Part shown: in pieces, positions 4,706 through 63,917 of the stretch
Layout: every line of letters begins with the position of its first letter
Numbering within the stretch: the first letter of the stretch is position 1
Source: a virus
Taxonomy: Duplodnaviria; Caudoviricetes
Virus record (IMG/VR): IMGVR_UViG_2744054709_000002
Coordinates: 11,719-75,718 of that record
DNA: 64,000 bases
Strand: one strand, 5' to 3'
Translations under genes and position numbers: made by a program
The notes under the pieces: model-generated
Told to the model about the DNA's origin: nothing
What the model saw: the letters and a program-made list of their open reading frames with translations, nothing else
Database searches by the model: none

Positions 4706-6783
4706 ACCTGCTGCAGCGTTCTCTCGACTGCCAGCTCATGATGCTGGAGGAAACTGCGGCACGGCTGGGCTATGGCGGGACGGGCTCGATCCCGGAGGCC
4801 ATGGGGTTTCTGGAGTGGTGCGAGGACCTGGCGGCAAAGGGGCTGAAAATTGACGGACGCCCTTTCCGCCTGGACAACCGGCCGGCCCTGCGCCCGATCT
4901 ACGATGCAATCCCGACCACCCGCCAGCAGGCCTATGGCAAGACTCTCGTGATCCAGAAGGCGACCCAGCTGGGCCTTACCGTGTGGGAAGTGCTGGCCGA
5001 CCTTTACATGGCCAAGAAATGGTCGCCGGTGAATATCGGGATGTTCCTGCCCGACCAGAACACGGCGGCGTTCAAGTCCGAACGACGGTTCATGCCGATC
5101 ATCCGGTCGTCGCCACAGCTGCTATCGGAACTGATCTATCGCTATGACGGCAAGGGCGGCCGGCAGAAGATCGGTGAAGGCAATGTCCTGACGCGCGAGA
5201 TCGCGGGGTCGCTCCTGATGTTCCTGTGGACGTCGGGCAAGGTCTCCACGGAATCCCGGCCCATGGATATCGTCAGTCTGGACGAAGTCCAGGGTATGAG
5301 CCTGGAGGAAATTGACAAGGTCGCAGCCCGAATGGGTGACAGCGACGTGCGTTTCAAGATGCTGCTGTCCACGGCGAACATGCCGGACGAGGATATCAAC
5401 AACTGGTACAAGCGTGGCACGCAGGAGGTGTGGCACACGCGATGTCCCGGTTGCGGGGCGCTGTCGGACCTGTCCGATCCCAACGGCATATTCCCGTCGC
5501 GCTCGATCGTTTTCAACAAGGGTCAGGTCCGCCCTGCCCCGCCATATCCCGGCGAAACGGCCCAGCACGCGCCGCCTGTTGATGATTATGTGTGGGTCTG
5601 CCCGGAGTGCCAGGGCTACATCCCCGACCCGCAATATGGTGACTATATTGCCCAGAATCCCGGTGCTGGAAATGATATCCGCTCATTCCTGCTGCCCCGG
5701 ACGATCAGCCCGAGGATGACCGCCCGGGAAATGTTCACCGATTTCGGGTTTGCATCGACAGGAGCGCAGAAACAGAGTTTCTTCAATCGCACGCTGGCGC
5801 GCCCCTATGTTGATCCAGACCAGATCCCAGTTTCCTACGAGGTCTGCCAGGCGGGCGTGGAGCGCGGACGTGCCGCTGGCGTGACATGGGAGGAAACGGG
5901 CAGCGGGACCTACATGGGGATCGACCAGATGGGGGGCTTTAACGCCGTCATCATCAAGAAGCGGCTGCCTGACAACCGGCAGGCGGTGATCCATGTGGAG
6001 GCTGTGTTCGACCTGTCCCCGTTTGACCGGTGTGCTGATCTGATGCGGCAGTACGGGGTTGAGGTCTGTGTCGTCGAACAGCTGCCGAATTTCAACGATG
6101 CGCGCAAATTCGCCAACCGCTTCCCCGGCCGCGTGTTCCTGTGCACCGGCTATCAGGACATGGGCGATGAATCCATGCACTGGGGGGACAGCCTGTCGCG
6201 GTCGGAGCGTATGACCAGCGAGGAAGAACGGACGCGCTACACAGTTCGCTTGGACCGATACAAATGCATGCAGACGTCCTTGTACCGCATTCGCGACGGT
6301 ATCTGCCTGTTTCCCGACCCCAACGGGCTGGAGCAGGAAGTCATCGAGAACGGCAGGAAGCGGCGCATCGCGATCCTCTACGACTGGGTTTTCCTGCATT
6401 TTTCCCGTACTGCCCTGGTCACGGTTGCAGATCCGGAAACAGGGAAGACACGGCGCACTGTCCAGAAGATCGGGCTGGACCCGCATTTCAGTTTTGCACT
6501 GATGCTATGTGATGCGGCATGGGCACGTGTGCAGGGCAATTCCACGTTCATCCTTCCTGATGCTGGATTGGCAGGCGTGGGTACCGCCCAGTCGCCGTCT
6601 CCGTCCGCAGCCCAGAACCTGACGTCGCGGCTGGCAGAAATGATGGGAAGCGCCCCGGAGGGTGCCTGCGGGAAATGCCGGTATTTCGGAGGGGGCACCT
6701 GTTCGGAACGGGATCTGCGCGTTGGTGCGCTGGACCCGGGTTGCGTGTTCTACGAGCCCGCTGCGGACGACGTGACATCGTGA
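4702..6783 (+). CDS. terL: terminase large subunit, GpA-like
   Basis: KATQLGLT Walker A, SLDEV Walker B, CxxC insert, MGIDQ nuclease motif, DPHFSFA. Confidence 0.9.
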   Translation: MNLLQRSLDCQLMMLEETAARLGYGGTGSIPEAMGFLEWCEDLAAKGLKIDGRPFRLDNRPALRPIYDAIPTTRQQAYGKTLVIQKATQLGLTVWEVLADLYMAKKWSPVNIGMFLPDQNTAAFKSERRFMPIIRSSPQLLSELIYRYDGKGGRQKIGEGNVLTREIAGSLLMFLWTSGKVSTESRPMDIVSLDEVQGMSLEEIDKVAARMGDSDVRFKMLLSTANMPDEDINNWYKRGTQEVWHTRCPGCGALSDLSDPNGIFPSRSIVFNKGQVRPAPPYPGETAQHAPPVDDYVWVCPECQGYIPDPQYGDYIAQNPGAGNDIRSFLLPRTISPRMTAREMFTDFGFASTGAQKQSFFNRTLARPYVDPDQIPVSYEVCQAGVERGRAAGVTWEETGSGTYMGIDQMGGFNAVIIKKRLPDNRQAVIHVEAVFDLSPFDRCADLMRQYGVEVCVVEQLPNFNDARKFANRFPGRVFLCTGYQDMGDESMHWGDSLSRSERMTSEEERTRYTVRLDRYKCMQTSLYRIRDGICLFPDPNGLEQEVIENGRKRRIAILYDWVFLHFSRTALVTVADPETGKTRRTVQKIGLDPHFSFALMLCDAAWARVQGNSTFILPDAGLAGVGTAQSPSPSAAQNLTSRLAEMMGSAPEGACGKCRYFGGGTCSERDLRVGALDPGCVFYEPAADDVTS

Positions 6784-6792
6784 TGCGACACT
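6778..6792 (+). promoter_or_regulatory. putative late promoter (variant), leaderless portal mRNA
   Basis: TCGTGATG-C-GACACT, then 7 nt, then ATG. Confidence 0.6.
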
Positions 6793-6799
6793 GAACGGC

Positions 6800-8479
6800 A
6801 TGAACGAAACCGTGCGACAGTTGGCCCTCGGCCTCGATACCCCGCCTGACGAACGTTTCGACGCGTCCGTGGAGATGCACAAGGCGTATCGCCCGCTGGC
6901 GTCCCAACTGATCCCGCCTGAAAACCTGCGCCCTGTGATTGACTACATCAACAATGGGTTGATGGACGCTGAGTTCTACAAGGCAACCCCGCGGCAGATC
7001 ATCCGGCTGGGCGACGGCAATGACACGGGCGGCCGCATGCGGTCAGTGCGGCTGGACCCCCAGAAGATATTTTCCCAGGCGCGGTATTTTGAGAGGCCGT
7101 CCGCGCTGGATTTCACCGGACTGCGCGCGATCGTGGCGCAGACGCCGATCCTCAGCGCCATCGTGCGCCGGCGTGTGCGCCAGGTCAGTAGGTTTGCCCA
7201 GATCAGCGAGGATGGCGGCCTCGGGTTTGAAATCCGGCACAAGGATCGCAACCATCTGCTCAAGGGGACGGAGGCCGATGCCGCCGCGCATCTGGCGCGG
7301 TTTTTCCTCAACTGCGGCTGGGAGTTCAATCCACGCCGGCGCAAGCTGATGCACCGCGACAATTTCCGCCAGTTCATGGCCAAGTCGGTGCGGGATTCCC
7401 TGACGCTGGATTCATGCCCCATCGAGACGGAGATGCGTCGGAACGCTGAACTGGGGCTTGACGGGTTCTACGCCGTGGACGGTGCCACGATCCGGCTGTG
7501 TTCCGAGCAGCATTACGAGGGGGATGACCCGATTTATGCCCTGCAGGTCATCGATGGGCGCATCGGGACCACCTACACGATTGATCAGTTGATCTACGAG
7601 GTTCGCAATCCGCGCACCGACGTTGACACGGGTGGATACGGTGAGGCGGAGCCGGAGGTGATGATCAAGGTCATCACGGGCATCCTGAACGCCATGTCCT
7701 ACAACAATGCCGGGTTCGACGAAAATTCCATCCCCAAGGGCATCCTGCAGCTGATCGGCGATTACGGGCAGGAAGATATCGCGGCGTTCAAGCGATACTG
7801 GAACGCCATGGTCAAGGGGACGGCCAACACCTGGGCCCTTCCTGTCATGGTGGCGAAGGACGCGCAGAGCAAGGTCGCGTTCGAGAAGTTCGACACCGAC
7901 TTCAACGAGATGCATTTCGCCAAATGGATGACGTTCCTGACATCCATCGCATGCGCGATCTACGGCATGGCACCGGACGAGATCAATTTCGAGAGTTTCT
8001 CCGCGTCAAAGTCCTCCCTGTCTGGCAGCGATACGGAGGCCAAGCTGGAGAACGGGCAGGACACGGGGCTGCTGCCACTGCTTGCGTTCTATGAGGCTAC
8101 GTTCAGCGATTTCATCGTGTCGGCCTTCAACGATGACTGGTGTTTCCGCTTCGTCGGGCTGGATAGCGAGGATGCCGGGGCCAAGGCGAAGGAAGACGAG
8201 TCTGTCATGACGGTCAACGAACTGCGTGGCCGCCGCGGTGACGCGCCCTTCCCTGACCCCGTGCTGGGCAACGCGCCGCTCAATCCCAGCCTGATCCAGC
8301 CATGGATGGAACTGAACAAACAGCGGTTCGCAGGCGCAGGTACCGACGATGATCAGCGCCCGGGCGATCCCGGCCGTCCGTCCGATCCTCCTCCCGATGG
8401 TGACGCGGATACGCCTCTAGAAACCGATGATCCCGAGCCGGTCAGGAAATCCCTGGCCACTGTCTACACGGTCGAATAG
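6800..8479 (+). CDS. portal protein
   Basis: Follows terL; YNNAGFDENSIPKGIL, IACAIYGMAPDEINF and MTVNELR are typical of portals. Confidence 0.9.
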   Translation: MNETVRQLALGLDTPPDERFDASVEMHKAYRPLASQLIPPENLRPVIDYINNGLMDAEFYKATPRQIIRLGDGNDTGGRMRSVRLDPQKIFSQARYFERPSALDFTGLRAIVAQTPILSAIVRRRVRQVSRFAQISEDGGLGFEIRHKDRNHLLKGTEADAAAHLARFFLNCGWEFNPRRRKLMHRDNFRQFMAKSVRDSLTLDSCPIETEMRRNAELGLDGFYAVDGATIRLCSEQHYEGDDPIYALQVIDGRIGTTYTIDQLIYEVRNPRTDVDTGGYGEAEPEVMIKVITGILNAMSYNNAGFDENSIPKGILQLIGDYGQEDIAAFKRYWNAMVKGTANTWALPVMVAKDAQSKVAFEKFDTDFNEMHFAKWMTFLTSIACAIYGMAPDEINFESFSASKSSLSGSDTEAKLENGQDTGLLPLLAFYEATFSDFIVSAFNDDWCFRFVGLDSEDAGAKAKEDESVMTVNELRGRRGDAPFPDPVLGNAPLNPSLIQPWMELNKQRFAGAGTDDDQRPGDPGRPSDPPPDGDADTPLETDDPEPVRKSLATVYTVE

Positions 8480-8503
8480 GCCCGATAACAGGACTTCCCG
8501 ACG

Positions 8504-9682
8504 GTGAGAATTTACATCCTTCTAAAAGCCACGATCGCGAACCGGCCCGGCATGGCGCTGGTTTACGGGACGGATCGCCGCGGGCGGCGCATGCGGCGCT
8601 GGAAGCGGGTCGCCGCGCCGGATGCTCCCCCCGCCCATGTCCATGCCGCAGCCGAAAAGGAAGGTGGCGTGCATCGCTCCATTCCGCCGGAACATTTCAA
8701 CGCGGTGGATTTCGCAGCGCCCTATAACGATCATGCTGTGTCGTTGCCGGAGGTCTATCACGGATTTCCGGCCGATACGCAGGCCCGGCTGGATCAGTCT
8801 GCTGACGAACTTGCCAAGAAGCCGACGACGGTTGAACTGTTCTGCCATGACGGTGTCTACACGCCTGAGCGTGCAGCACTTCATGAGAGGATACTGGCCG
8901 ATTATACGTCGGCAGAGCGCCTATCCAAGGCTTTCCCTGCCGAAGGGGAAGCGCCGACCTTCATTTTCCTTGGCGGCCGTGGTGGTTCCGGGAAATCCGC
9001 GTTGCGGGGTATCGCATATGGCGACGACGCGCTTGTCATCGATGCAGACGGCATCAAGGCGCGCCTGCCTGGTTATGACGGGACGAACGCACATCTCTAT
9101 CATGAGGAATCGTCAGACATCGCAGAAGAATTGATGCGGCGTCTGAAGGCGATCAAAGCCAATATCGTTTATGATTCCACCATGCGCACGACAGCCAGGG
9201 CTGTAGCCCTTGCAAAGTCGATGAAAGCGGATCATTATCGGCTGGAAGTGCATTACATGTTTCTGCCGCGGCTTGATGCAGCACGTCGCGCCGTGAGCAG
9301 ATATATCGAAGACGGGCGGCTGGTCCCTCCTTCCGTGGTGCTCGGAAACCTGACAAACGAAGCAAGTTTTGATGCCGTGAAAGACCTGGCGGACAGCTGG
9401 TCATTTCGCAGCAATCTGGTGGCGCGGGGCAGTCCGCCTGCCCTGATATCGGAGAAGAAAGATGACCGTACTGAAAAATCCCGAAACGTGGGATTATCCG
9501 GACACGGTGGACATAGCCAGGGAGAGCCGCGTGAAGCTGTCTCCGGAGGCAGAGACGGCCTGGGAGGAACGCGTCAGGAAGGCGCGGCAGATGCGGGCGG
9601 AAGCCGACGCGACCGCCTCACGAAAGGACTGATCCCTTCAGCCCGTATTCTGGTGCTGCTTCCTGACTGTCGGCGTGCATGA
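8504..9682 (+). CDS. zeta-toxin-family P-loop kinase
   Basis: FLGGRGGSGKS, IDADGIK, HEESS, NIVYDSTM, SRYIEDGRLVP. Confidence 0.85.
   Translation: MRIYILLKATIANRPGMALVYGTDRRGRRMRRWKRVAAPDAPPAHVHAAAEKEGGVHRSIPPEHFNAVDFAAPYNDHAVSLPEVYHGFPADTQARLDQSADELAKKPTTVELFCHDGVYTPERAALHERILADYTSAERLSKAFPAEGEAPTFIFLGGRGGSGKSALRGIAYGDDALVIDADGIKARLPGYDGTNAHLYHEESSDIAEELMRRLKAIKANIVYDSTMRTTARAVALAKSMKADHYRLEVHYMFLPRLDAARRAVSRYIEDGRLVPPSVVLGNLTNEASFDAVKDLADSWSFRSNLVARGSPPALISEKKDDRTEKSRNVGLSGHGGHSQGEPREAVSGGRDGLGGTRQEGAADAGGSRRDRLTKGLIPSARILVLLPDCRRA
9462..9632 (+). CDS. 56-aa gene nested in the zeta gene (candidate antitoxin)
   Basis: GGAG RBS; MTVLKNPETWDYPDTVDIARESRVKLSPEAETAWEERVRKARQMRAEADATASRKD in the +1 frame, beneath a low-complexity zeta tail. 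Confidence 0.6.
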   Translation: MTVLKNPETWDYPDTVDIARESRVKLSPEAETAWEERVRKARQMRAEADATASRKD

Positions 9683-10890
9683 CCAGGCGCGCGGAAATTC
9701 TGGTCGATATTGGAGGTATAGCGTCATGCCAGTGCGATGATGCGCTGGAAAGCCTGTTCAAGGCCGCGACGGAAACGCCAGCCCGGAACCCCACCATGCT
9801 GTGGGATGACGTTCCCAATCCGATCATCCGCAGGCTGGTCGAACTGTTCACCCAGAAATATCAGGCGGTCCTGAAGCAACTGCAGGACCGCTTTGGCCAG
9901 ATCCTTACCGGGAAGGGCACAGGCTCGCTCCAGAAGGCGCTATCCCCTGGATGGGGACGGTGGACGCCTGAACAGGAGCAGGAGGCCCGGGCGCATCTGG
10001 AGCGGCATCCTCCCGAAGATTATACCCTTGATGACTGGATGCTGCTGGTCGAGCTGCTGATGCAGGAATACCTGCCGCATGACGTGGCGGTGGACTGGGG
10101 GGACTGGCTGACGGTACGGGCTACGCTCGCGGGAAAGGCGCAGGCTGCGTTCGAGGCGCGGGGCATCCGGGATGCCGAGAGCATCGCGAAAATGGCGGAA
10201 TACATGCCCACGGGGTTCGGGGCGGTTCCGCGCAAGATCCTCACGCCAGTCGAGATGAAGACCATCGAGATTGCGCGGGCACGCGCGGCCGAGAACATCT
10301 CCGCCGTCACCGACGTGGCGCGCCACAAGATGAAGAACCTGATCATCCAGCACATGGAAGCGCAGATGTTCGGGATGAAGCAGGGTCAGTTCACCGCACT
10401 GCGGCAGAGCCTTTTTGATGCGTTCGGGGAACTGAACCGAGATTTCCGGCGCATTGCAGTGACCGAGGCGGGGGAGGCCTGCAACCAGGGCCTGATCGCC
10501 ACCCTCTCGCCCGGGCAGCGGGTCAAGCGCGTGGAAGCTTATCGCGGCGCGTGCGCGTTCTGCAAATCGATCAACGGGAAAATCTTTACCGTCGTTGCGC
10601 CCGACGCGCCGGAGCAGAATGGCCAGACGCAGGTCTGGGTCGGGAAAACCAATATCGGGCGCTCTGCCGCTTCGCGGCGTCGCACTGACGAAGGGCTGAT
10701 GCCCCGCAGCGAAAACGAGATGTGGTGGCCAGCCGCCGGCGTCCAGCACCCGAACTGCCGGGGCAGCTGGGTCACGGTTACGGATCCGGGACCTGATGTT
10801 TCCCCTGAATTCGTCAACTGGATGGACGGAATCCTGCGCAAGCATAGTCTCAAGCCAGTCGGCAGACCAAGCGGGCAGCAACCAACGTAG
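9679..10890 (+). CDS. head morphogenesis protein, MuF/SPP1 gp7-like
   Basis: RIAVTE, CAFC and HPNCRGSW motifs; near portal. Confidence 0.85.
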   Translation: MTRRAEILVDIGGIASCQCDDALESLFKAATETPARNPTMLWDDVPNPIIRRLVELFTQKYQAVLKQLQDRFGQILTGKGTGSLQKALSPGWGRWTPEQEQEARAHLERHPPEDYTLDDWMLLVELLMQEYLPHDVAVDWGDWLTVRATLAGKAQAAFEARGIRDAESIAKMAEYMPTGFGAVPRKILTPVEMKTIEIARARAAENISAVTDVARHKMKNLIIQHMEAQMFGMKQGQFTALRQSLFDAFGELNRDFRRIAVTEAGEACNQGLIATLSPGQRVKRVEAYRGACAFCKSINGKIFTVVAPDAPEQNGQTQVWVGKTNIGRSAASRRRTDEGLMPRSENEMWWPAAGVQHPNCRGSWVTVTDPGPDVSPEFVNWMDGILRKHSLKPVGRPSGQQPT

Positions 10891-10895
10891 CCAGA

Positions 10896-10913
10896 TTGCA
10901 TGCATGCATGCAA
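10896..10913. repeat. (WGCW)n palindrome, candidate centromere site
   Basis: TTGCATGCATGCATGCAA; 24 bp identical to the site upstream of parA. Confidence 0.7.
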
Positions 10914-10925
10914 AACACGCGTCTG

Positions 10926-10940
10926 TCGTGACGGCATGAT
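10926..10940 (+). promoter_or_regulatory. putative late promoter
   Basis: TCGTGACG-G-CATGAT. Confidence 0.7.
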
Positions 10941-10967
10941 GGGACATCATCATGCAGCGGAGCGATT

Positions 10968-11327
10968 ATGCGCGGTTTTCTGACTTTCCTTGCGGTTCTG
11001 GCCTGCCCTGTGCTTGCCCTGGCGGCGAGCGTGGGGCCGTCCAGTCCCATGATGCCCGAGGCTCCGGCGATCATGGCCGCAGCCACGTGGCAGGAGATTT
11101 TCCCGGCTGGCACCCAAAATCATGGCGGCGTGTTCCAGAACACCTCTGCGGCGGTGGAGTATATCTGTCTGACGGGATGCGCGGGGGGCGATCTTGGTTC
11201 CACAGCGATTGCCGTCTATCCGGCATCGGCGACGAACCCCGGCATATTCCGGTGGGGGCCAGTCAGCGGCCCCATTACGGTCTATGGCGCGAAAGCAGGC
11301 CAGACCTACAGCGCGTTTGGAGGCTGA
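10968..11327 (+). CDS. small secreted protein
   Basis: GGAG RBS; Sec-type signal MRGFLTFLAVLACPVLALA. Confidence 0.7.
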   Translation: MRGFLTFLAVLACPVLALAASVGPSSPMMPEAPAIMAAATWQEIFPAGTQNHGGVFQNTSAAVEYICLTGCAGGDLGSTAIAVYPASATNPGIFRWGPVSGPITVYGAKAGQTYSAFGG

Positions 11328-11346
11328 CATGCATGCTTGCAAGCAA
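11328..11346. repeat. (WGCW)n array
   Basis: CATGCATGCTTGCAAGCAA, intergenic. Confidence 0.6.
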
Positions 11347-11372
11347 ATCGGCAAGCGCCGAGGCATTCTGCC

Positions 11373-11924
11373 ATGCTGATCCTCCTCAAAGCCATGCCGC
11401 AGCATCCCCTGTCATGCTTCCATGAACCCACGGAGGGGCAGAAGCGGGCCGGAAATTATCGTAAGACAAAAACCGATTTCGGAGGCTTGCCGATCACCAT
11501 CGAGAACGAGGCCGGAAGTGTCCGGCGCGGTCGCGATCATGGCGGTAAGGAATGGGCCACCACCATGACGTGCCATTACGGATATATCCGGGGCACCGTG
11601 GGGGCGGACGGCGACCATTATGACGTGTTCATCGGCCCGGACGAAAAGTCACGGCGTGTCTGGATCATCCAGACCATGGCGCCGCCTGATTTTCGCAAGA
11701 AGGACGAGGAAAAGGCGATGCTCGGCTTTGGCAGCGAAAGCGAGGCCCGGGCCAGCTTCCTGCGTCATTACGACAATCCTGCCTTCCTGGGGGCAATCCG
11801 CGAGATGCCGTTCGACATCTTCAAGCGACAGGTCATGGCGACCAAGGAGAACGGAGGAAAACTGCGGGGTCCGAAACCGGTGAGAAAATGCTTTATCGTG
11901 CTTGGGCGTGAGAGCCCGGCATGA
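11373..11924 (+). CDS. phage inorganic-pyrophosphatase-like (InPase) protein
   Basis: AGNYRK, ITIENEAGS, HYGYIRGTVGADGDHYDVFIG, DEEKAMLGF. Confidence 0.85.
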   Translation: MLILLKAMPQHPLSCFHEPTEGQKRAGNYRKTKTDFGGLPITIENEAGSVRRGRDHGGKEWATTMTCHYGYIRGTVGADGDHYDVFIGPDEKSRRVWIIQTMAPPDFRKKDEEKAMLGFGSESEARASFLRHYDNPAFLGAIREMPFDIFKRQVMATKENGGKLRGPKPVRKCFIVLGRESPA

Positions 11925-12171
11925 TTGCGCCGCGTCATAGAATGTGGCGCGCACTGATCTGGCTGCTGGTCCGCGAGGAACGCGCACGGACACGGGCATG
12001 GGCCGCGATCATAGAGGCGTCCCGTCGCCAGCGGCGCCCGGGTCGTAAAAAATAGGGGGCTGGCAGGCTGTCTGGTATGTTGACCAGACCGGCGACGACC
12101 ACTACCTATTACGATCATCGTGGTATCACGGACCATCTCCGTCGCCGCGTATCAAGACTGGGGGCACGGTT

Positions 12172-12615
12172 ATGCTGAGCGCGAGGCAGGTCGCTGATTA
12201 TTTTCTGACGTTGGCGGATCCAGACGTTGGGGATGAGATTTCCAATCTGAAGCTCCAGAAGCTCTGCTATTACGCGCAGGGGTTCAGCCTGGCTTTGAAC
12301 GACACGCCCCTGTTTATGGAGCCGATTGTCGCTTGGCAGCATGGCCCCGTGGTGGAATCAATTTACCATGCGTTCAAGATATATGGGTCACAAGGGATTC
12401 CATGTCCTGTGGGGCTGGATTTCTCGGTATATGACGAGGATGACCGGGAACTGCTGAACGAAGTCTATGACGAGTATGGGCAGTTTTCCGCGTGGAAACT
12501 GCGCAATATGACGCATGAGGAAGCGCCGTGGCGCAACGCTGACAAGAGCGGTGCAAATAACGTGATCTCCCAGTCAGCTATGAAAAAATTCTTCAAGAGG
12601 CGGCTGAAGGACTAG
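12172..12615 (+). CDS. Panacea (SocA/DUF4065) antitoxin
   Basis: VADYFL, SNLKLQKLCYYAQG, AWQHGPVV, LRNMTHEEAPW. Confidence 0.9.
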   Translation: MLSARQVADYFLTLADPDVGDEISNLKLQKLCYYAQGFSLALNDTPLFMEPIVAWQHGPVVESIYHAFKIYGSQGIPCPVGLDFSVYDEDDRELLNEVYDEYGQFSAWKLRNMTHEEAPWRNADKSGANNVISQSAMKKFFKRRLKD

Positions 12616-12619
12616 CGTC

Positions 12620-13048
12620 CTGTCGGCCAAGAAAAACAAAAAGCGTATCGCCAGTGCCCCAGCGCGGACATCGGGAAGAATTGCTGCGCCGCAGTCATCA
12701 AGCGGCAGTACTGATCACCTGAAGCCCCATTTCAGTCTGGAAAACCTGCAGCCATCGCATGATATCGAATGCTGCGAGGAGAATGAGCGGGCAAGGTTCG
12801 CTGTGGCAATCGCCAAACGCTCCAAATTAACGTGGAACGAACTGCGCGCATCCGGTCGTCACGGACTTGGATACGAGAAGATCGGCCGATCATCCATGAA
12901 GGTGGCTATTCCGCCATTCATCACTGAAGAAACGCCAATAATCGCTTTTCGATGTGCGGGGATGGCGCCGATGGTCGGTTATCGGGGCGGCCGGGTTTTC
13001 TATGTCGTCTGGATTGACCGCGCGTTTGATGTGTACGATCATGGATAA
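12620..13048 (+). CDS. putative toxin partner of the Panacea antitoxin (probable CTG start)
   Basis: Frame is open from 12608; AAGGA RBS precedes CTG at 12620; C-terminal MVGYR..VFYVVWIDRAFDVYDHG resembles RelE-like toxins. Confidence 0.65.
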   Translation: MSAKKNKKRIASAPARTSGRIAAPQSSSGSTDHLKPHFSLENLQPSHDIECCEENERARFAVAIAKRSKLTWNELRASGRHGLGYEKIGRSSMKVAIPPFITEETPIIAFRCAGMAPMVGYRGGRVFYVVWIDRAFDVYDHG

Positions 13049-13081
13049 TTCGGAAACAATAATGACATATGGTGATATCTA

Positions 13082-13333
13082 ATGACAGAAGTTCCCGTTT
13101 GTAAAAAACGCGTTGAAGACGCCTGCATTGCAGCACTCCAAAACAGTGATGCTGATTTGTTAGTTATTTTTAATAGACTGCAAAAAATTTCAGGAATCGA
13201 AGAAATAGGACCCAAAAGAAAGGAAATAGAAATTTTATTGTTAAAAGCGCAATTATGTGAAGGAAATATAATGAATATTTCAGATCACGATTTTCGTCTC
13301 ATTGCGAGTGAATTGGAAAAGGAAAAAAATTAA
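13082..13333 (+). CDS. hypothetical low-GC protein
   Basis: 83-aa ORF in an AT-rich patch. Confidence 0.55.
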   Translation: MTEVPVCKKRVEDACIAALQNSDADLLVIFNRLQKISGIEEIGPKRKEIEILLLKAQLCEGNIMNISDHDFRLIASELEKEKN

Positions 13334-13379
13334 TTCTATAAGAGTAGGACGCGCCGGACAGTTGGACAGGAGCGCCCGA

Positions 13380-14075
13380 ATGGATGTCTGGGTCGGAAAA
13401 TCGAACATCGGTCGCGCGCCCGAAAAGGCGCTGACACGTGCCGAGATGAAAACCATCGAAATGGCCGAGGTCTTCGGCATGCGTAGCGTGGAGGACGTGT
13501 CCGGTGCGGACAGGGCGCAGATGAAGGCGCTCCTGGTGGAGCACGTCAAGGCGGATGCCTTCGGGATGAAGCAGGGCACGCATCGGGCATTGGCGTCCGC
13601 CCTGTTCGCGGAGTTCGCGGTCCTGAATCTGGATTTCGAGGAAATCGCTGCGACGGAAATGGGAGAGGCGCGCAATCAGGGCATGATCGCGGCGCAGGAG
13701 CCGGGAGCACATGTACGATGGCGTGACGCCTGCGACGGCTGTCCCAGCTGCACGGCGCTCAATGGCAAGACATTCAGGGTCGTCGCGCCGGATAGCCCGG
13801 ACAGGAATGCCCGGACGGATGTCTGGGTAGGGAAATCTAATATCGGTTGCGTGCCCGGCCCGGGATATGGTCCAGACGATGAAGGATACGATCAGGCGTG
13901 GGCGCAGCCGCACTGGTTCCCGGCCGCAGGGCTGCAGCATGTGGGGTGCCGGGGCAACTGGTCAGCGATCCCCAAAGCCGACCCGCGCGTATCGCCGGAG
14001 TTCGTGGAATGGATGGATGAGATCCTGCGCAAGCATCATCTGAAGCCGACAAGCCCGCGCAAGATTGAGGAATAA
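13380..14075 (+). CDS. second, truncated and rearranged MuF-like paralog
   Basis: Shares EMKTIE, FGMKQG, NQG, VWVGKxNIG, AAGxQH and VSPEFVxWMDxILRKH with 9679-10890. Confidence 0.75.
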   Translation: MDVWVGKSNIGRAPEKALTRAEMKTIEMAEVFGMRSVEDVSGADRAQMKALLVEHVKADAFGMKQGTHRALASALFAEFAVLNLDFEEIAATEMGEARNQGMIAAQEPGAHVRWRDACDGCPSCTALNGKTFRVVAPDSPDRNARTDVWVGKSNIGCVPGPGYGPDDEGYDQAWAQPHWFPAAGLQHVGCRGNWSAIPKADPRVSPEFVEWMDEILRKHHLKPTSPRKIEE

Positions 14076-14107
14076 TCTGGCTGCCTCAGTTCCAATACCG
14101 CCTGAGA

Positions 14108-14635
14108 TCAGGCAGCGATGGCCTGGGGAACCGTATCCCACTCGTCCAGTTGTGTGACCTCAGCGGGTAGGGCGCGCCGGACCATCCGGATCCGTGGAGC
14201 GGTCTGGCTGGCACGTGGCTTGAGCGGGGAAAGCGATGTCACGGTTTTCGGGTCCACGCTGAAATGCGGGAAACGGTCACGTAGCGTGGTCACCACCACC
14301 ATGCGCAGCTGCTTGTCAGCCCACTGGCCGACTTCCTGCTTGCCATTCTCCCAACGGGAATAGGTGGCCGGGTTCATCATCAGGATCTTTGCCATATCCC
14401 CCGAAGACAGGTCCAGCACGTCGCGCAGGAACCGGATCTCCAGCGGCAGAAGGCCGGTCGGGATCAGGACACGCGCCATCGCCACGGCGGCCGCAAGCCC
14501 TTCCATGTCGGGCACGGAAACTCCGATCACTTCCCCGGTGGTTTCGTCAATTTCCTCTTCCGCGGCGTCAATCAGCGTCACCGCGTAAGGCAGCCCCAGG
14601 CCGTCTTCCTCGTACGAGGGCAGTGTTCTGAACAT
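14108..14635 (-). CDS. MqsA-like HTH antitoxin
   Basis: EIRFLRDVLDLS..MAKIL..PATYSRWENG HTH; downstream of a small toxin-like gene. Confidence 0.8.
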   Translation of the reverse strand: MFRTLPSYEEDGLGLPYAVTLIDAAEEEIDETTGEVIGVSVPDMEGLAAAVAMARVLIPTGLLPLEIRFLRDVLDLSSGDMAKILMMNPATYSRWENGKQEVGQWADKQLRMVVVTTLRDRFPHFSVDPKTVTSLSPLKPRASQTAPRIRMVRRALPAEVTQLDEWDTVPQAIAA

Positions 14636-14647
14636 GAATTCTTCCTT

Positions 14648-14947
14648 TCAGCGGAGCGCCATGACCGTGATGATACGAATGATACAGACGTCATCTTTCA
14701 AAGTGACAACCACGCCTATCCGGCGACCGTCATTGTCGGTCCCGACCACGCGCCAGGTTTCATCACCGTCCAGTGGTGCTTCGATTTGATCAATGTTGCC
14801 GCGACGGAGCACGCGCTCAGCAATCAGCTTGGAGATATGGCGTTCCCGTGAACGCTGTGTCGCATGGTGCGTCCATACGATCCTTGCCCCTTGCGTGATA
14901 GCGTTCTGCAATCTGCGACGTTCTGCATCGTGCGGCACCGTTATCAA
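14648..14947 (-). CDS. DUF4258-like toxin
   Basis: THHATQRSRERHIS and IRIITV; TTG start. Confidence 0.75.
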   Translation of the reverse strand: MITVPHDAERRRLQNAITQGARIVWTHHATQRSRERHISKLIAERVLRRGNIDQIEAPLDGDETWRVVGTDNDGRRIGVVVTLKDDVCIIRIITVMALR

Positions 14948-14959
14948 GTCCTCGTCGTG

Positions 14960-14988
14960 AAAATAGGTATTTTTTGACGTACCGTCAA
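14960..14988 (-). promoter_or_regulatory. sigma70 promoter with overlapping operator for the TA pair
   Basis: TTGACG-17 bp-TATTTT on the minus strand; palindrome TTGACG-TAC-CGTCAA at 14974-14988. Confidence 0.7.
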
Positions 14989-15043
14989 GTGGGGTAGCTT
15001 CACTCGTGAGTGTCCGCCTGTACGCATCCCCGTTCGTCGGTAT

Positions 15044-16264
15044 TCAGTGTGAACTGCAATTCGAAGAAGGCGCAGACTGTATGGCACCGCTTAGAATTGC
15101 GCGCGCAACGTCACCACAGTCACTTGGTTCGCGATCAAGGTAAGCATATGCACCCTGAGAGGCACAGGCAGTGCACATGCCGGCGTCAATGAGTTTCTCG
15201 ATTGCATCATTGGCGCGAATTTCTGTCTTGTGCTGTTCTGGATGGTCGAAATATAGGCTGAAACCCAGATCGTCAGGGTACACCTTGGGAGCATGCACGA
15301 CGTGGCAGTTCTGTAACTGGATGGTCCCCGCCGGGAACACGATGCCCCCATGTTGTCCATATGCTATCGGAGAGCCGTCTGGAGTAGCTTCAAGCAGGTT
15401 CAGATGATCTGCTTTCATGCCGACTTTGTAATAGTCATTGTTTTCAATAGGCTTTGTGATGGTTCCAATACAGCCATTGTCTGTTTCAGACGGGTCATCT
15501 TTCTCGTCGCTTATGAGAAAATAAGGCGAGAACGTATAAAAAAATTTATCGGACATAATAATATTATTCTTCACGGCATAATATACCATGTCTGTTGCTG
15601 CCTGTGATAATCCATTTCCGATTAGTGGCATAAAAACTTTCTTATTTGGCCCGACAGTAATGTATGAACTGTTTTTTATGGATTTTGCGAACTTATAAGC
15701 ATCGTCACCAAACAGTGTTTTTTCGTATAATGATGATACTATATTAGACTCTGTTGTAAAATTAGACCTTTTCAGGACGATGCTGTCATTTCCGATCTGA
15801 AGTATATGTGTTGGGTCTGAGGTCCCATTTATAAGAAGATTTATATATATTCCATGCAGGCCCTCAGAAAGAATATAGAGATTGATTGGCCCAAAATGAC
15901 CATGTAAAGCAAGGTCATGGGATTGAGACATCATCATGACATCCCAAAATCCCGTGCTTTCTATTACTCGGTCACCTTCAAAATTTGTCTCGTTTATTGG
16001 GACTTTCATATAATACGGGACATAATTATTGAAGTGCATTTTGGCTTCAGGAAGGGGCCGAGGAATTCCTGGAACTGCAGCGCTGGAATGTCCCGATGCG
16101 GGTTCCTCGTGGGATGCGCGTATGTTGACGGCACCTGCACGTGCAGTCGTATGTTGCGCGGTCATATGTGTAGATAGAGCCGTCCACGACACATATGTCA
16201 GACCGCCTCCTGCTATGAGGCTGGCAGTGATGATTGCTGCGAATCTCATGGGGGACAACTGCAT
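15044..16264 (-). CDS. low-GC membrane-anchored hypothetical protein (moron)
   Basis: 406 aa, N-terminal hydrophobic segment, AT-rich. Confidence 0.7.
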   Translation of the reverse strand: MQLSPMRFAAIITASLIAGGGLTYVSWTALSTHMTAQHTTARAGAVNIRASHEEPASGHSSAAVPGIPRPLPEAKMHFNNYVPYYMKVPINETNFEGDRVIESTGFWDVMMMSQSHDLALHGHFGPINLYILSEGLHGIYINLLINGTSDPTHILQIGNDSIVLKRSNFTTESNIVSSLYEKTLFGDDAYKFAKSIKNSSYITVGPNKKVFMPLIGNGLSQAATDMVYYAVKNNIIMSDKFFYTFSPYFLISDEKDDPSETDNGCIGTITKPIENNDYYKVGMKADHLNLLEATPDGSPIAYGQHGGIVFPAGTIQLQNCHVVHAPKVYPDDLGFSLYFDHPEQHKTEIRANDAIEKLIDAGMCTACASQGAYAYLDREPSDCGDVARAILSGAIQSAPSSNCSSH

Positions 16265-16406
16265 GGAGTTCAGCCGATCATCTGCAAGAGATACCGTGCA
16301 TCAATCCTACCATCCATCGCCATGATCCATGTTCCCTACTGTTCTGATCTTCCGATATCACAGAACATTTCGGGAGCGCGTTAACAGGACGGCATGACAG
16401 GGATGC

Positions 16407-16607
16407 TTATGCTGGATGCAGCTTTGCTGCTTCAAGCCCTAACTGGAGCAGGCGACGAAGTGCTTCTGATCGCGTGATGTTCATTTCTTTTGCGTAAGCA
16501 TGAACGGCCTGCACCAGTTCAGCAGGGACTCTTCCCGAGATAAGGGGGTTGGTTCCCGTTGCTGGGCGTCCTCTTCTTTTTACGTGCACGGTAATTGACG
16601 GCTTCAT
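16407..16607 (-). CDS. ribbon-helix-helix (CopG-like) regulator
   Basis: KRRGRPATG..ISGRVP..ITRSEALRRLL; near-palindrome TTTTATGTCTACGTAAAA just upstream. Confidence 0.8.
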   Translation of the reverse strand: MKPSITVHVKRRGRPATGTNPLISGRVPAELVQAVHAYAKEMNITRSEALRRLLQLGLEAAKLHPA

Positions 16608-16690
16608 ATTTTATGTCTACGTAAAAAAACAGGCCGAAGCAAGGTTGCCCCCTTGCCCCGGCCCTAACCAACAGCAAGGGAAAGTACCCC

Positions 16691-17482
16691 ATGCCACCGG
16701 CTGATCATTTTCATAACATTTCCAAGGGGCGTTCGTCGCCCACCCTTTTTGACAGCATTGCGCCTGACACTGGCGATTTAGCTTCCCTTACTATGTCCAG
16801 TCGTGAGATCTCGGAACTGACTGGGAAACAGCATGCCCATGTTATGCGTGACATCCGTGCCATGCTGGAACAGGTTGGAGAGGGCCAATCCAAGTTTGGA
16901 TCGACCTATCTCGATGCCCAAGGAAAGGCACGTGAGTGCTACAATCTCCCCAAAAACCTGACGCTCAACCTCATCACCGGCTACCGGGCGGACATGCGGC
17001 TGAAAATCATCGACCGCTGGCTGGAACTGGAGGCCTCGACGTCGCCCATCCCGGACCCGCGTGTGCCGCGCACCCTGTCGGAGGCGCTGCGCCTTGCCGC
17101 CGACCAGCAGGACCGGATCGCGGCGCAGGCGGACACGATCGCGCAGCAGCAGGTGCGGATCGAACGTGACGCGCCCAAGGTCTCCGCGCTGGCGCGCATT
17201 GCGGGGACCGAGGGGTCGATCGATATGCGGCAGGCGGCGAAGAACCTGCAGGTCAAGCCGATCCTGTTGCGCAATTTCATGCGCGACCGGCGCTGGATCT
17301 ACCGCAAGGGCGAGCACTGGCTGGCGTACCAGACCAAGCTGGACAGTGGCCTGCTGGAGCACAAGCTGGTCACCCTGCATCAGGAGTCAGGGAGGACGAA
17401 AATTGTGACCCGCCTGCGGGTGACCGCGAAAGGCATCTCCCGCCTGGGGGAGATGTTGCACGGATGGGGGGTGGCACGATGA
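16691..17482 (+). CDS. Rha-family/KilAC antirepressor
   Basis: MSSREISELTGKQHAHVMRDI (Rha), PRTLSEALRLAAD, RVTAKG (ANT/KilAC). Confidence 0.9.
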   Translation: MPPADHFHNISKGRSSPTLFDSIAPDTGDLASLTMSSREISELTGKQHAHVMRDIRAMLEQVGEGQSKFGSTYLDAQGKARECYNLPKNLTLNLITGYRADMRLKIIDRWLELEASTSPIPDPRVPRTLSEALRLAADQQDRIAAQADTIAQQQVRIERDAPKVSALARIAGTEGSIDMRQAAKNLQVKPILLRNFMRDRRWIYRKGEHWLAYQTKLDSGLLEHKLVTLHQESGRTKIVTRLRVTAKGISRLGEMLHGWGVAR

Positions 17483-58886: not shown

Positions 58887-58929
58887 TAAAAACCGGCGAG
58901 AATAACAGTTATCGCCGGTAAACGGCGGA

Positions 58930-58944
58930 TCGTGACGATAGGCT
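58930..58944 (+). promoter_or_regulatory. putative late promoter
   Basis: TCGTGACG-A-TAGGCT. Confidence 0.75.
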
Positions 58945-58982
58945 GGGGCATCCCGTTCCCATCATCGTCATGAGGCCGCATC

Positions 58983-59615
58983 ATGCCCGATCTCGTCAAA
59001 ATCGAAGCCGTGCGCGGCACACGCCGCAATTTTCTCGGCTTCGCGTTCCTGTCCGGCCTGGCCGTCGCCTCCCTTGCGGCGCTGCCCGGGTGCTCGTCCA
59101 GTAAGGATGGCAACGTCACCACCATCACCGTCAACGTGTCCGAGATCGATACCGACGGCACGGCCGCATTGAATATCCTCAAAACCGTTCTCGCGTTCAC
59201 CGGTCTGCCGCTGGCCGTTGCTGATGTCGTGGATGATGCGATCGACGGTGTCGAGGCGGCATTGGCCACCTGGGACAAATATTGCAGCGGCAAGCAGACG
59301 GTCGTTTTTGACGCCACCAGCGTCCCGACGGAAGCGTCCAGCGTGATCGCAGCGCTGCAGAATGCCGCCACGACCATCGGAAACGTCGCGACGTCGGAGG
59401 CGGCCACCCTCGGCACCACCCTGACGTCCAAAATCACCTCCGTATCGTCGGACATCGCGTCGCTTGCGGCGATCGTCTCCAGCATCGTCCGGACAACGGC
59501 GGGACTGTCGCTGGGCGCGCAGGCGAGCACGCTGACCCCGACGCAGGCCCGCATGCTGCAGGTCAACGGCATCCTTGCGCGGCATGGCCTGCCGCCGGTC
59601 GCCGTCAAGGGCTGA
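58983..59615 (+). CDS. twin-arginine (Tat) lipoprotein
   Basis: TRRNFLG, hydrophobic core, LPGC lipobox. Confidence 0.75.
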   Translation: MPDLVKIEAVRGTRRNFLGFAFLSGLAVASLAALPGCSSSKDGNVTTITVNVSEIDTDGTAALNILKTVLAFTGLPLAVADVVDDAIDGVEAALATWDKYCSGKQTVVFDATSVPTEASSVIAALQNAATTIGNVATSEAATLGTTLTSKITSVSSDIASLAAIVSSIVRTTAGLSLGAQASTLTPTQARMLQVNGILARHGLPPVAVKG

Positions 59616-62020: not shown

Positions 62021-63292
62021 TCACCATGCATGGACCTGCATGATGTCCTCAAACCGCGTGGTATAGGCAGGTGACAGGAAGGCCTGCCGCGGGCGCCAGT
62101 CCTGCCGCGTGCCGGTCGCCAGCGGGCGCACGGTCCCGCGGCCAAACCGGGCATTGAGGGCGTCCATCGCTGCCATCACGCTTTCGGCGCGTTGTGGATC
62201 GCGGGTTGAGAACAGCGCGCCCTGCCGCGCGGCCGGTGCCAGAGCGTCAAGAATGACGCCAGCCTTGAAATACCGATATCCCGGTTTCCAGATTTTTCGC
62301 AGCAGCCGCAGTGATGCCGCGATCAGCGCCATCGTATCATTGGTCGGCTCGATGCTGATCGATTGCTGGTTGGCATACCATCCCGCCTCGGTCGATGTGC
62401 GGGGGTTGGTCCGTATGAAAACACTGATGCTGCCGGCATGCAGCCGATCGCGTCGGAGTTTGGCTGCGACCGTCGTCGCATATGAAGCGACGGCCTCGCG
62501 CAGATCCGACCAGTTGTCGATCGGCCTGCCGAATGTGCGCGTACAAGCGAGTCCCTGTCGTGGAGCTGCCAGATCCGCCAGGGGGAGGCACGATTGCCCC
62601 TGCAGTTCCGCCTGCACCCGCGCGCCCACGACCGTAAGCAGGTTGCGGACGGCGCGTGTATCCATCTCGACAAAATCCGCGATCGTGTGGATGCCTGCCC
62701 GCCGGAGGCGTTCGGCCCCCTTGTGGCCTATGCCCCACACATCCTCGATGTCAGTCCGGCGGTACCAGTCATGCCGGAGGGCCGTATCATTGAGATCGCA
62801 CAGCCCCTGTAGCGCGGGATCCGCTTTCGCGATGCGGTTGGCCACCTTGGCTATGGTCTTCGTTGGCCCCCAGCCAATGCAGGTCGGAATCTTGGAGATT
62901 TCCAGAACGTCACGCCGCAGGTCCGCGCAGAAGGTGGCCAGATCATATGGGAGCGCCGTGAGGTCGAGGAACATTTCATCGATCGAGTAGGGTTCGACGC
63001 GGGGAACCCGATATTCCAGCACCTGGAACATGCGTCGGCTCATGTCAGCATACAGCGGATAATTGCTCGAGTACCACTGTACGGCGCGGAGTGCTGGGCG
63101 CCTGCGTGCCAGATGCCACGGCTCGCCCATCTTGATGCCCAACTGCTTGGCCTCGGCCGTCCGGGCGATCGCGCACCCGTCGTTGTTGCTTAGAACCACG
63201 ACGGGTGAATGTCTGATGCTGGCGTCAAAGGCCCGCTGGCAGGAACAGTAAAACGAGTTCCCATCGATGAGGCCAAAGACCGGCACATTCAC
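62021..63292 (-). CDS. umuC: Y-family DNA polymerase V catalytic subunit
   Basis: LIDGNSFYCSC, VLSNNDGC, SSNY.LYADMS, YSIDE, LSPAYTT. Confidence 0.95.
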   Translation of the reverse strand: MNVPVFGLIDGNSFYCSCQRAFDASIRHSPVVVLSNNDGCAIARTAEAKQLGIKMGEPWHLARRRPALRAVQWYSSNYPLYADMSRRMFQVLEYRVPRVEPYSIDEMFLDLTALPYDLATFCADLRRDVLEISKIPTCIGWGPTKTIAKVANRIAKADPALQGLCDLNDTALRHDWYRRTDIEDVWGIGHKGAERLRRAGIHTIADFVEMDTRAVRNLLTVVGARVQAELQGQSCLPLADLAAPRQGLACTRTFGRPIDNWSDLREAVASYATTVAAKLRRDRLHAGSISVFIRTNPRTSTEAGWYANQQSISIEPTNDTMALIAASLRLLRKIWKPGYRYFKAGVILDALAPAARQGALFSTRDPQRAESVMAAMDALNARFGRGTVRPLATGTRQDWRPRQAFLSPAYTTRFEDIMQVHAW

Positions 63293-63675
63293 ACCTCGGT
63301 CCGCACCACGGCGCAGACCACGGCCCATATCCCCGCATTCTGGTCTCCGTCCACCGGGCGAAGGGCATCGCCATCGCCCGAGCGGCCCGACCTCAGGAAC
63401 CATCCATCCCGGTTGCGGGTAATCTCGCAGACAATGGTCTGATCCTGCCAGCGTGCGATGACCACGTTGCCCGTACGTGGCGATGCCGCCGTATCCACGA
63501 TCAGCACATCCCCATGCAGGATCCCGCGAGCAGACAGGGCATCTCCTACGACGCGCACCGGATACCGATTGGGGCGATAGAGGTCGAGCACGGCGCCCAG
63601 ATCAATAGGCCCCTCAGCGCTGTCCGCAGCAGGCGATGCAAATCCGGTTGTCCTGTCGCCTGCGTATCCAGACAT
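63289..63675 (-). CDS. umuD: UmuD-like S24 protein, catalytic residues degenerate
   Basis: GFASPAAD, VRV.GD, GI..GD.LIVD; coupled to umuC. Confidence 0.8.
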   Translation of the reverse strand: MSGYAGDRTTGFASPAADSAEGPIDLGAVLDLYRPNRYPVRVVGDALSARGILHGDVLIVDTAASPRTGNVVIARWQDQTIVCEITRNRDGWFLRSGRSGDGDALRPVDGDQNAGIWAVVCAVVRTEV

Positions 63676-63703
63676 AGCATGTTCCCCTTTCATTCGCAGA
63701 ACC

Positions 63704-63718
63704 GAACGTAACATGAAC
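63704..63718. promoter_or_regulatory. alphaproteobacterial LexA (SOS) box
   Basis: GAAC-GTAACAT-GAAC upstream of umuD. Confidence 0.85.
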
Positions 63719-63902
63719 AATATGGAAGAAGTCAAGAGGCCCGATGCGTCCGGAGGTCGAGCGCGGCGCTCGGAGCGACTGGGGCTGCATTACTGTCTCC
63801 CGCTGTCGTCGCATATGAAGCGACGGCCCCATACCGATCGCGGCCATTTTCGCCGCACGGAGAAAATGGTTGTCAGGCGCCCGATGTGCGGGGCGGCCTA
63901 GG

Positions 63903-63917
63903 TCGTGACGATAGGAT
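63903..63917 (+). promoter_or_regulatory. putative late promoter
   Basis: TCGTGACG-A-TAGGAT; downstream AAGGAG RBS and ATG at 63985 (gene runs off the window). Confidence 0.7.

Follow-up and report, generated by a model that had tools for sequence, protein, structure and literature searches.

Which signal precedes the particle genes of a large phage genome, and what reads it? We addressed this question in a stretch of 64,000 nucleotides (nt) of Caudoviricetes DNA, hereafter called the window, which corresponds to bases 11719 to 75718 of the 75,718-bp virus record IMGVR_UViG_2744054709_000002 (GC content, 0.60). An initial annotation, made from the letters of the window, had noted that a box of the form TCGTGA(C/T)G, followed after one base by a -10-like hexamer, lies upstream of eight genes, and had proposed that it controls late operons, most of them expressed from leaderless mRNAs. 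From the analysis reported here, we conclude that the motif probably defines a phage-specific class of late promoters, which has no -35 element, carries a box for a factor upstream of the -10 hexamer, and often gives rise to leaderless mRNAs.

The octamer TCGTGAYG by itself was mildly enriched in the window (13 copies on both strands versus 6.93 ± 2.61 expected, with 3 of 100 shuffles reaching 13). The full pattern TCGTGAYGNNANNNT, composed of the octamer, one base, and the hexamer nAnnnT, was found 8 times versus 0.23 expected (0 of 100 shuffles reached 8), and its combination with an ATG located 6 nt past the hexamer (N6) was found 4 times versus 0.00 expected. The eight sites are exactly where the initial annotation had placed them, all on the plus strand, which is the coding strand. 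Octamers within coding sequences that lack the hexamer had been listed at 23889, 28732, 38250, and 40519; these four are correct, and a fifth one, at 60872, had been missed. A weight matrix derived from the sites of the phage family (see below) gave nine strong sites genome-wide, since scanning the whole replicon, as had been advised, added a site on the minus strand at genome position 2496, outside the window and ∼50 nt 5′ of a GH108 endolysin gene. Every one of the nine sites, including the one on the minus strand, matches the orientation of the gene that follows.

At five of the sites, an ATG occurs 6 or 7 nt past the hexamer, as had been claimed, and the open reading frames (ORFs) opened by these ATGs are 273 to 1506 codons long. 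The first site (6778 to 6792, plus strand; box TCGTGATG, 1 nt, GACACT) overlaps the TGA stop codon of the large terminase gene (terL, 4702 to 6783) and has the ATG of the portal gene (6800) at 7 nt (N7). The four others have the ATG at N6, and they are all on the plus strand: 19448 to 19462 (TCGTGACG-a-TATCCT), before the ATG of a large helicase gene (19469); 24617 to 24631 (TCGTGACG-g-CAGCCT), before the ATG of the head maturation protease gene (24638), in an operon that runs on to the major capsid protein; 30790 to 30804 (TCGTGACG-g-CATCAT), before the ATG of a gene coding for 273 amino acids (aa) (30811), which is followed by the sheath, tube, and tape-measure genes; and 39942 to 39956 (TCGTGACG-g-CAGCAT), before the first ATG of the baseplate operon (39963). 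With an AUG start 6 to 7 nt past the hexamer and no Shine-Dalgarno sequence at a working distance, the mRNAs from these five sites are predicted to be leaderless.

The three remaining sites of the window, likewise on the plus strand, are leadered and followed by a Shine-Dalgarno sequence, again in agreement with the initial annotation. The site at 10926 to 10940 (TCGTGACG-g-CATGAT) likely serves the gene at 10968 to 11327, the ATG of which has a GGAG Shine-Dalgarno sequence; this frame also shows a higher GC content at third codon positions and a signal-peptide-like N terminus, and for these reasons an alternative frame at 10952 was dropped. The site at 58930 to 58944 (TCGTGACG-a-TAGGCT) precedes the gene at 58983 to 59615 and following genes with no assigned function, and the site at 63903 to 63917 (TCGTGACG-a-TAGGAT) acts across the circular junction on a 231-aa gene (genome positions 53 to 748) equipped with a GGAG Shine-Dalgarno sequence. 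Altogether, the motif is oriented and marks the 5′ side of the leading gene in operons for head, tail, baseplate, cargo, and lysis functions, the genes served being those for portal/head, capsid, tail, baseplate, endolysin, and the large helicase, together with two operons of no assigned function. PHROGs matches agreed with the earlier labels of portal, helicase, protease, and virion/baseplate genes, and the label "tail terminator" for the gene at 30811 to 31632 found no family match. At positions -15/-14, the sequence is CG in 8/9 sites of this genome and TG at 6778 only, so that an extended -10 element (TGn) is not a general feature.

We evaluated the conservation of the motif in related phages. 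A search with the major capsid protein retrieved 17 viral contigs at 53 to 63% identity and 4 further genome contigs, from Oxalobacteraceae, Azospirillaceae, Acetobacteraceae, and Rhodovarius. In this genome and 21 related loci, the hexamer nAnnnT was found at the fixed spacing after 65/106 octamers on the coding strand versus 1/24 on the other strand, and the protease promoter was kept at the orthologous position in most of the 17 viral loci. After removal of the duplicate loci L003 and L023, we obtained a set of 60 nonredundant sites, picked on the box, A(-11), and T(-7). Several positions that had not been selected proved informative, namely, G at -22 (54/60), A or C at -8 (51/60), C at -1 (41/60), and A, T, and G at +1 to +3. 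No conservation was seen between -56 and -23, showing that there is no -35 element. Unselected hexamer positions and flanks vary among the 60 sites, with hexamers that mostly start with C or G, a G-rich discriminator, and the ATG at the canonical distance of +1. A start codon occurs at N6 or N7 in 34/60 sites, and it is ATG in all 34; in 21/60 sites, it is located elsewhere, at 0 to 50 nt and mostly at 9 nt or more, several of these sites having a Shine-Dalgarno sequence, and 5/60 sites have no downstream ORF of at least 60 codons. In the relatives, the box is often found 3′ of T-runs that resemble terminators.

The same architecture is present 5′ of the portal, protease, helicase, tail, and baseplate genes in two cultured phages, Bordetella phage PHB04 and Pseudomonas phage Dolphis, in which the base at -14 is variable, leaving (G)TCGTGAY-N2-nAnnnT as the family core. 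A strong strand bias was found in Escherichia coli phage ECML-606-1 (0 matches forward and 9 reverse, with 1 match for a reversed control pattern), in Aeromonas phage ST4 (1 and 9), and in Yersinia phage fHe-Yen8-01 (8 and 0). The expectation that relatives would share the motif was therefore borne out, both at 53 to 63% capsid identity and in cultured phages of alpha-, beta-, and gammaproteobacterial hosts. We found no description of this motif in the literature searched: the literature on PHB04 (the Mecenats66 paper) has no mention of "promoter" or "leaderless," and none matched for fHe-Yen8-01.

Two further features of the cultured relatives were observed. In PHB04, the large helicase gene adjoins a gene for a DarB-like methyltransferase. 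The homologue of the segment at 29839 to 30690 is inverted in PHB04 (locus L024, near 13998 to 14016) and in Dolphis (locus L026, near 14279 to 14299), resulting in two back-to-back late promoters ∼20 bp apart, each leaderless by geometry; this arrangement accounts for the inverted GTCACG seen 5′ of the tail promoter in several metagenomic loci.

These in silico data support the interpretation given in the initial annotation, and we propose the following reading of them. The promoter would consist of G-TCGTGAC-G and, after one base, a minimal hexamer at -10, (c/g)Ann(a/c)T. This hexamer, through A(-11) and T(-7), would be used by the host RNA polymerase carrying its primary sigma factor; a factor encoded by the phage and sitting on the box (-22 to -14) would stand in for the -35 contact, and transcription would start 7 nt past the hexamer. 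At 5/9 promoters, +1 would then be the A of the ATG, so that leaderless mRNAs would direct translation of the leading gene in each of the portal, helicase, protease-capsid, tail, and baseplate operons; the 4 others would produce leaders of ∼20 to 60 nt with a Shine-Dalgarno sequence. We infer a late class from the genes served (portal/head, capsid, tail, baseplate, and endolysin). The two bases that matter most in a -10 element, A(-11) and T(-7), together with a G-rich discriminator, an ATG at the expected +1, and the lack of a -35 element, point to a promoter of the sigma-70-type holoenzyme, and the frequent location of the box after terminator-like T-runs as well as the variable leader distance fit a promoter. 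Since the start codons that are farther off are found at 9 to 50 nt with a Shine-Dalgarno sequence, the motif is better viewed as a transcription signal than as a translation signal. Leaderless mRNAs require a 5′ AUG, and the exclusive use of ATG at N6 or N7 fits this need. Finally, a phage-encoded reader is likelier than a host one because phages of alpha-, beta-, and gammaproteobacteria retain the box despite otherwise unrelated early regions.

Other explanations deserve consideration. Host RNA polymerase might read these promoters alone, the box being an extended -10 or spacer element for a primary or alternative host sigma factor and the timing resulting from repression or read-through. 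The hexamer, with A(-11) and T(-7), the G-rich discriminator, and the canonical distance to +1 are all compatible with such a view, and the TCGTGATG variant, which occurs at 6778 and at most sites of ECML-606-1 and ST4, ends in a true TGn extended -10 element. However, CG takes the place of TG in the other 8 of the 9 sites here, and position -14 varies in PHB04 and Dolphis. Moreover, the invariant (G)TCGTGA lies farther upstream than sigma region 3.0 is known to read. Together with the occurrence of the same box across hosts of three proteobacterial classes, in phages whose early regions share only the protein CR1 described below, these observations make an exclusive role of the host unlikely. 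We also envisaged that a phage repressor similar to P1 C1 uses the box as its operator, in which case the box would not be an activator site, and that it silences the particle genes of a plasmid prophage by acting on weak promoters. The genome, that of a temperate phage-plasmid, encodes RepA, ParA, an integrase-like recombinase, and an anti-repressor; a protein bound to the box, directly next to the -10 hexamer, could block the polymerase; and many single asymmetric C1 operators are annotated in the P1 record. Yet hexamers such as CAGCCT with neither a -35 nor an extended -10 element should be very poor promoters, leaving little to repress, the box, the spacing, and the +1 geometry are conserved jointly, and the same box persists in members of the family that differ widely in their early and immunity regions. 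We thus regard an operator as very unlikely.

A role of the motif in RNA, either as a processing site or as a translation signal in polycistronic transcripts, for example through a cleavage that would create 5′-AUG ends, would explain why its position relative to the ATG is fixed in 34/60 sites. We folded the RNA at seven sites, and a stable structure was predicted at 19443 to 19520, where the box pairs with the region just past the start codon in read-through RNA (z = -4.1; 0 of 200 shuffles were as stable), with weak effects at 24612 to 24689 (site 24617, z = -2.0) and 58925 to 59002 (site 58930, z = -1.9). Nothing unusual was seen at the other four sites, indicating that such pairing is not general; where it is predicted, it could keep the read-through RNA untranslated. 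Against an RNA-level signal, the start codon is at other, mostly larger distances in 21/60 sites, several of which have a Shine-Dalgarno sequence, conservation falls on an A and a T precisely where a -10 element has its two key positions, and the box often follows terminator-like T-runs in the relatives. We consider this explanation highly improbable and retain the late promoter with an upstream factor box as the best reading.

We searched for the protein that might read the box. All ORFs of at least 40 aa were compared with the three complete genomes of PHB04, Dolphis, and ECML-606-1, and a single non-virion ORF was found to be common to them and to this genome. This ORF, named CR1 (2754 to 3263, plus strand), encodes a 169-aa protein with seven invariant cysteines and one nearly invariant cysteine and is followed by CR2 (3260 to 3541, plus strand), which encodes a 93-aa, zinc-ribbon-like protein with seven invariant cysteines. 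The ATG of CR2 overlaps the stop codon of CR1 (ATGA), indicating translational coupling, and CR2 was present in 72/85 CR1 loci. A GGGGAGG Shine-Dalgarno sequence of its own, but no late box, precedes the CR1 start codon (ATG 2754), and the gene heads an operon composed of CR1, CR2, a metallopeptidase-like gene, a 212-aa gene, and terL; a scan of the region from 2200 to 2800 with the sigma-70 consensus revealed no promoter upstream of CR1. An exhaustive HMMER search retrieved 571 cluster representatives of CR1 homologues in metagenomes (E ≤ 0.001), and the alignment of 60 of them showed the conserved sequence CxSCYNRxRE..GRNxKG together with the cysteines mentioned above. The structure of CR1 was predicted with confidence (predicted local distance difference test score [pLDDT] of 90.0 and predicted template modeling score [pTM] of 0.68), and the model of CR2 reached a pLDDT of 85.4.

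CR1 and the motif tend to occur together. CR1 was found in 5/5 whole records of capsid relatives, and in the cultured-phage collection it was restricted to nine phages of this lineage (10 records). We also scanned viral contigs for the motif and, among the 80 matches listed, chose 28 long contigs. Among the contigs at least 90% complete (n = 17), CR1 was present in 15/15 with at least 8 motif matches and in 0/2 with a single match; among the fragments (n = 11), it was present in 4/7 with at least 5 matches and in 0/4 with 3 or fewer. In 80 CR1-centered loci (1.18 Mb), we counted 113 motif matches versus 4 for the reversed control, and those on the CR1 strand were mostly downstream of CR1 (100 versus 9 upstream, corresponding to ∼0.14 versus 0.02 per kb), the first box being often located directly after CR2 and a box lying just before CR1 in only 1 locus. 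CR1 lies where the early region gives way to the late region and has expression signals of its own that are not late ones; late activators are usually found in such a place. We tentatively regard CR1, possibly together with CR2, as the most likely reader of the box, an assignment that we hold with less than even confidence.

Several observations weigh against the reading proposed here. We detected no sigma factor, RNA polymerase, or known activator family in the Pfam scan of 80 ORFs or the PHROGs scan of the 81 ORFs of the window, although divergent factors could escape such scans, so that the existence of a phage-encoded reader is something we infer. CR1 has no Pfam or PHROG match, and no family or fold pointed to DNA or polymerase binding: comparison with PDB sequences gave nothing below an E value of 0.19, Foldseek found no PDB structure at E ≤ 0.001, a wide VIA-align search yielded a best Z of 3.2, and the Atlas returned only viral hypothetical clusters. 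Likewise, Foldseek gave no hit for CR2 at E ≤ 0.001, and its best VIA-align score (Z of 2.8) was to generic zinc ribbons (Elf1, the topoisomerase I zinc ribbon, and TFIIS), below a useful threshold. In Yersinia phage fHe-Yen8-01, the CR2 homologue carries the annotation "particle associated protein," which fits a virion role better than a regulatory one. The co-occurrence of CR1 and the motif is confounded by shared ancestry, as any core gene would show it, and 3/7 fragments with at least 5 motif matches lack CR1, the gene of which may sit in the missing part. The terminase gene of this genome lacks its own late box and is apparently cotranscribed with CR1. Leaderless geometry was found at just 1/9 sites of ECML-606-1, meaning that this feature is not universal. 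Lastly, transcriptome sequencing (RNA-seq) contigs of up to 58 kb cover 30/30 bins of 6501 to 26500, and assembled contigs of this kind cannot show RNA ends or expression levels.

These contigs come from four RNA-seq runs of one study, which contain 99% of the sampled words of 19300 to 29200. Contig breaks near 10890 to 10913 and 24453 to 24547 coincide with copies of a (GCAT)n palindrome, and for this reason we interpret them as branches of the assembly graph, not as RNA ends. One run breaks at 19440 to 19447, just 5′ of the box, which argues neither for nor against the predicted starts. In 2/4 runs, contigs end at 24369 to 24374 by running into sequencing-adapter sequence, and the next contig begins at 24453 (long in three runs and short in the fourth); this position may be a real RNA end 3′ of the helicase gene or an artifact of the nearby (GCAT)n repeat.

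A perfect 18-bp palindrome, TTGCATGCATGCATGCAA, was found at five places in the window (10896 to 10913, 24511 to 24536, 30723 to 30740, 39884 to 39901, and 47792 to 47809), and matches with at most 2 mismatches numbered 7 versus 0.00 expected. Four copies lie 13 to 81 nt 5′ of the late boxes at 10926, 24617, 30790, and 39942, and the fifth lies ∼44 nt before the likely true start of parA (ATG near 47748, with GGAGGG upstream); a small protein is encoded downstream of parA, at 46767 to 47081. The palindrome was absent from all relatives examined. Dispersed centromere-like copies are found in the N15 prophage, and TTGCATGCATGCATGCAA may similarly be a par operator with dispersed centromere-like copies; if so, partition proteins could be linked through it to the silencing of late promoters. 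In a broader and more speculative scheme, which we put forward as possible though doubtful, CR1/CR2, a translationally coupled pair of putative zinc proteins for which no family or fold match was found, would constitute a new class of late-transcription factors. By binding GTCGTGAC at -22 to -14, they would substitute for the -35 contact and enable the host polymerases of alpha-, beta-, and gammaproteobacteria to start exactly at the AUG, with TTGCATGCATGCATGCAA tying late silencing to partition in this phage-plasmid.

We also examined the genetic context of the promoters. The record has a 68-bp terminal overlap, which indicates a circular or circularly permuted assembly. A 75,702-bp contig of Novacetimonas hansenii JCM 7643 codes for an identical major capsid protein, and we deduce from this identity that the host is an acetic acid bacterium (alphaproteobacterium). 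Near-identity DNA searches with 19000 to 43900 in phage and plasmid collections gave no match. Gene annotation was based on PHROGs and Pfam, with the ORFs in the first 11.7 kb of the record covered by the Pfam scan, and it identified a structural module of the myovirus type. The annotated products are RepA of the RPA family (1428 to 2264), the large terminase TerL (4702 to 6783, plus strand), portal (6800 to 8479, plus strand), an anti-repressor (16691 to 17482), an integrase-like tyrosine recombinase (17912 to 18868), a superfamily 2 (SF2) helicase of 1506 aa (19469 to 23989, plus strand; PHROGs), the head maturation protease (24638 to 25501, plus strand), the major capsid protein (26265 to 27758), sheath (31960 to 33750), tape measure (34803 to 37718), baseplate proteins (39963 to 43964), and ParA (near 47.1 to 47.7 kb, minus strand). 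A minor head protein is encoded at 9679 to 10890, and the first gene of the tail operon, mentioned above, lies on the plus strand. The combination of a virion module with RepA, ParA, an integrase-like recombinase, and an anti-repressor identifies the element as a temperate phage-plasmid.

Additional genes and repeats were noted in the window. Inside the portal operon, between the genes for portal and the minor head protein, an ORF at 8504 to 9682 encodes a 392-aa protein with a Zeta-toxin/AAA_33 kinase-like domain, which may be a virion cargo. Accessory genes lie between late operons, at 12172 to 12615 and 14108 to 14947 (minus strand), and encode a SocA/Panacea-domain protein and a DUF4258/BrnT-like toxin that adjoins a helix-turn-helix protein. 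A 257-aa ORF in the accessory region (13302 to 14075) was considered as a second conserved non-virion gene besides CR1 and was discarded because it turned out to be a paralogous copy of the last two thirds of the minor head protein (48% identity over 218 aa). A gene for a UmuC-like Y-family DNA polymerase (IMS, IMS_C, and DUF4113 domains) is located at 62021 to 63403 on the minus strand. Iteron-like direct repeats (TCGTGGTTTTAYGGAC, 2 to 3 copies, and GCGTCGTAAYATCRCGGAC, 2 copies) between repA and CR1, at 2273 to 2531, probably form the plasmid replication origin.

If the proposed reading is correct, the motif would control the onset of particle and lysis gene expression in a lineage of large temperate phages and phage-plasmids (∼75 to 100 kb) that is widespread and whose hosts include acetic acid bacteria, Bordetella, Pseudomonas, Aeromonas, Yersinia, Morganella, and E. 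coli. It would represent a compact, 15-bp promoter that needs no -35 element and is portable across proteobacterial classes, and a natural system outside Thermus and actinobacteria in which most structural operons start as leaderless mRNAs. With a candidate reader, the question becomes testable; ECML-606-1, a member of the family that infects E. coli, contains the motif as well as CR1/CR2. The motif is useful for annotation, too, as it fixes start codons and the limits of operons across these genomes. The candidate reader, CR1/CR2, is what is new here.

How do these promoters compare with known late systems? In T4, where late promoters (TATAAATA) depend on gp55 and gp33, and in P2/P4, where Ogr and Delta act, small phage proteins redirect host RNA polymerase to late promoters without a normal -35 element. 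Ogr and Delta are small zinc proteins with sites near -55. Motif and geometry in both systems are unlike those described here, and no match to gp55, gp33, or Ogr_Delta was found among the ORFs scanned with Pfam and PHROGs.

The resemblance to P1 is closer. In the annotation of the P1 record, late promoters (LPmat, LPpro, LPlyz, LPdar, LPs, LPsit, and others) carry a -10 element preceded, at a distance of 4 nt, by a 9-bp "-22 region" and have no -35 element, and the six that we extracted from this annotation read AAGTGACTT-N4-TAnnnT and are all leadered. Promoters of the P1 type depend on the activator Lpa and on host SspA. Like the present phage, P1 is a temperate phage-plasmid of the myovirus type, and its late promoters share an nAnnnT -10 hexamer, a missing -35 element, a short conserved upstream box containing GTGAC, and a placement before portal, lysis, tail, baseplate, and anti-restriction operons. 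The regulator gene also adjoins the packaging genes in P1 (lpa just before LPpac), as does the candidate CR1 here. Nevertheless, the P1 box, AAGTGACTT, is separated from the hexamer by 4 nt and centered near -22, whereas the box here, GTCGTGACG, is separated by 1 nt and centered near -18, with the GTGAC core 4 bp closer, and the hexamer starts with T in P1 but mostly with C or G here. Single-sequence tblastn against this genome, PHB04, Dolphis, and the 21 related loci revealed no homologue of Lpa (best E value of 1.2), although a very distant relative could escape such a search; conversely, CR1 was not found in P1, and Lpa has no cysteine, unlike CR1. The parallel with P1 drawn in the initial annotation is therefore apt as an analogy and does not extend to homology: judging from their sequences, the promoters appear to work like P1 late promoters but not to be members of the P1/Lpa family.

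For the leaderless feature, we turned to Thermus phages. Their portal genes (Lalka27a/phiYS40) showed weak DNA similarity to the window, and single-sequence tblastn of CR1 against the phage collection gave no match in a Thermus phage. According to a 2026 preprint on phage Lalka27a, its late promoters consist of TAGGGT and a C at -25 without a -35 element, the starts of half of them were mapped 6 nt past the -10 element, the transcripts are mostly leaderless, and the authors infer that a phage factor remains to be identified (bioRxiv 10.64898/2026.04.20.719267). Lalka27a and, according to the same preprint, phiYS40 are like the present phage in lacking a -35 element and in having a distinctive -10 element and a conserved position upstream. 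The TAGGGT and C(-25) signature itself differs from what we find here, with hexamers such as CAGCCT, CATCAT, and TATCCT, no conservation at -25, and the box GTCGTGAC. Despite its different motif, Lalka27a is the closest experimental precedent for the leaderless part of the system that we propose.

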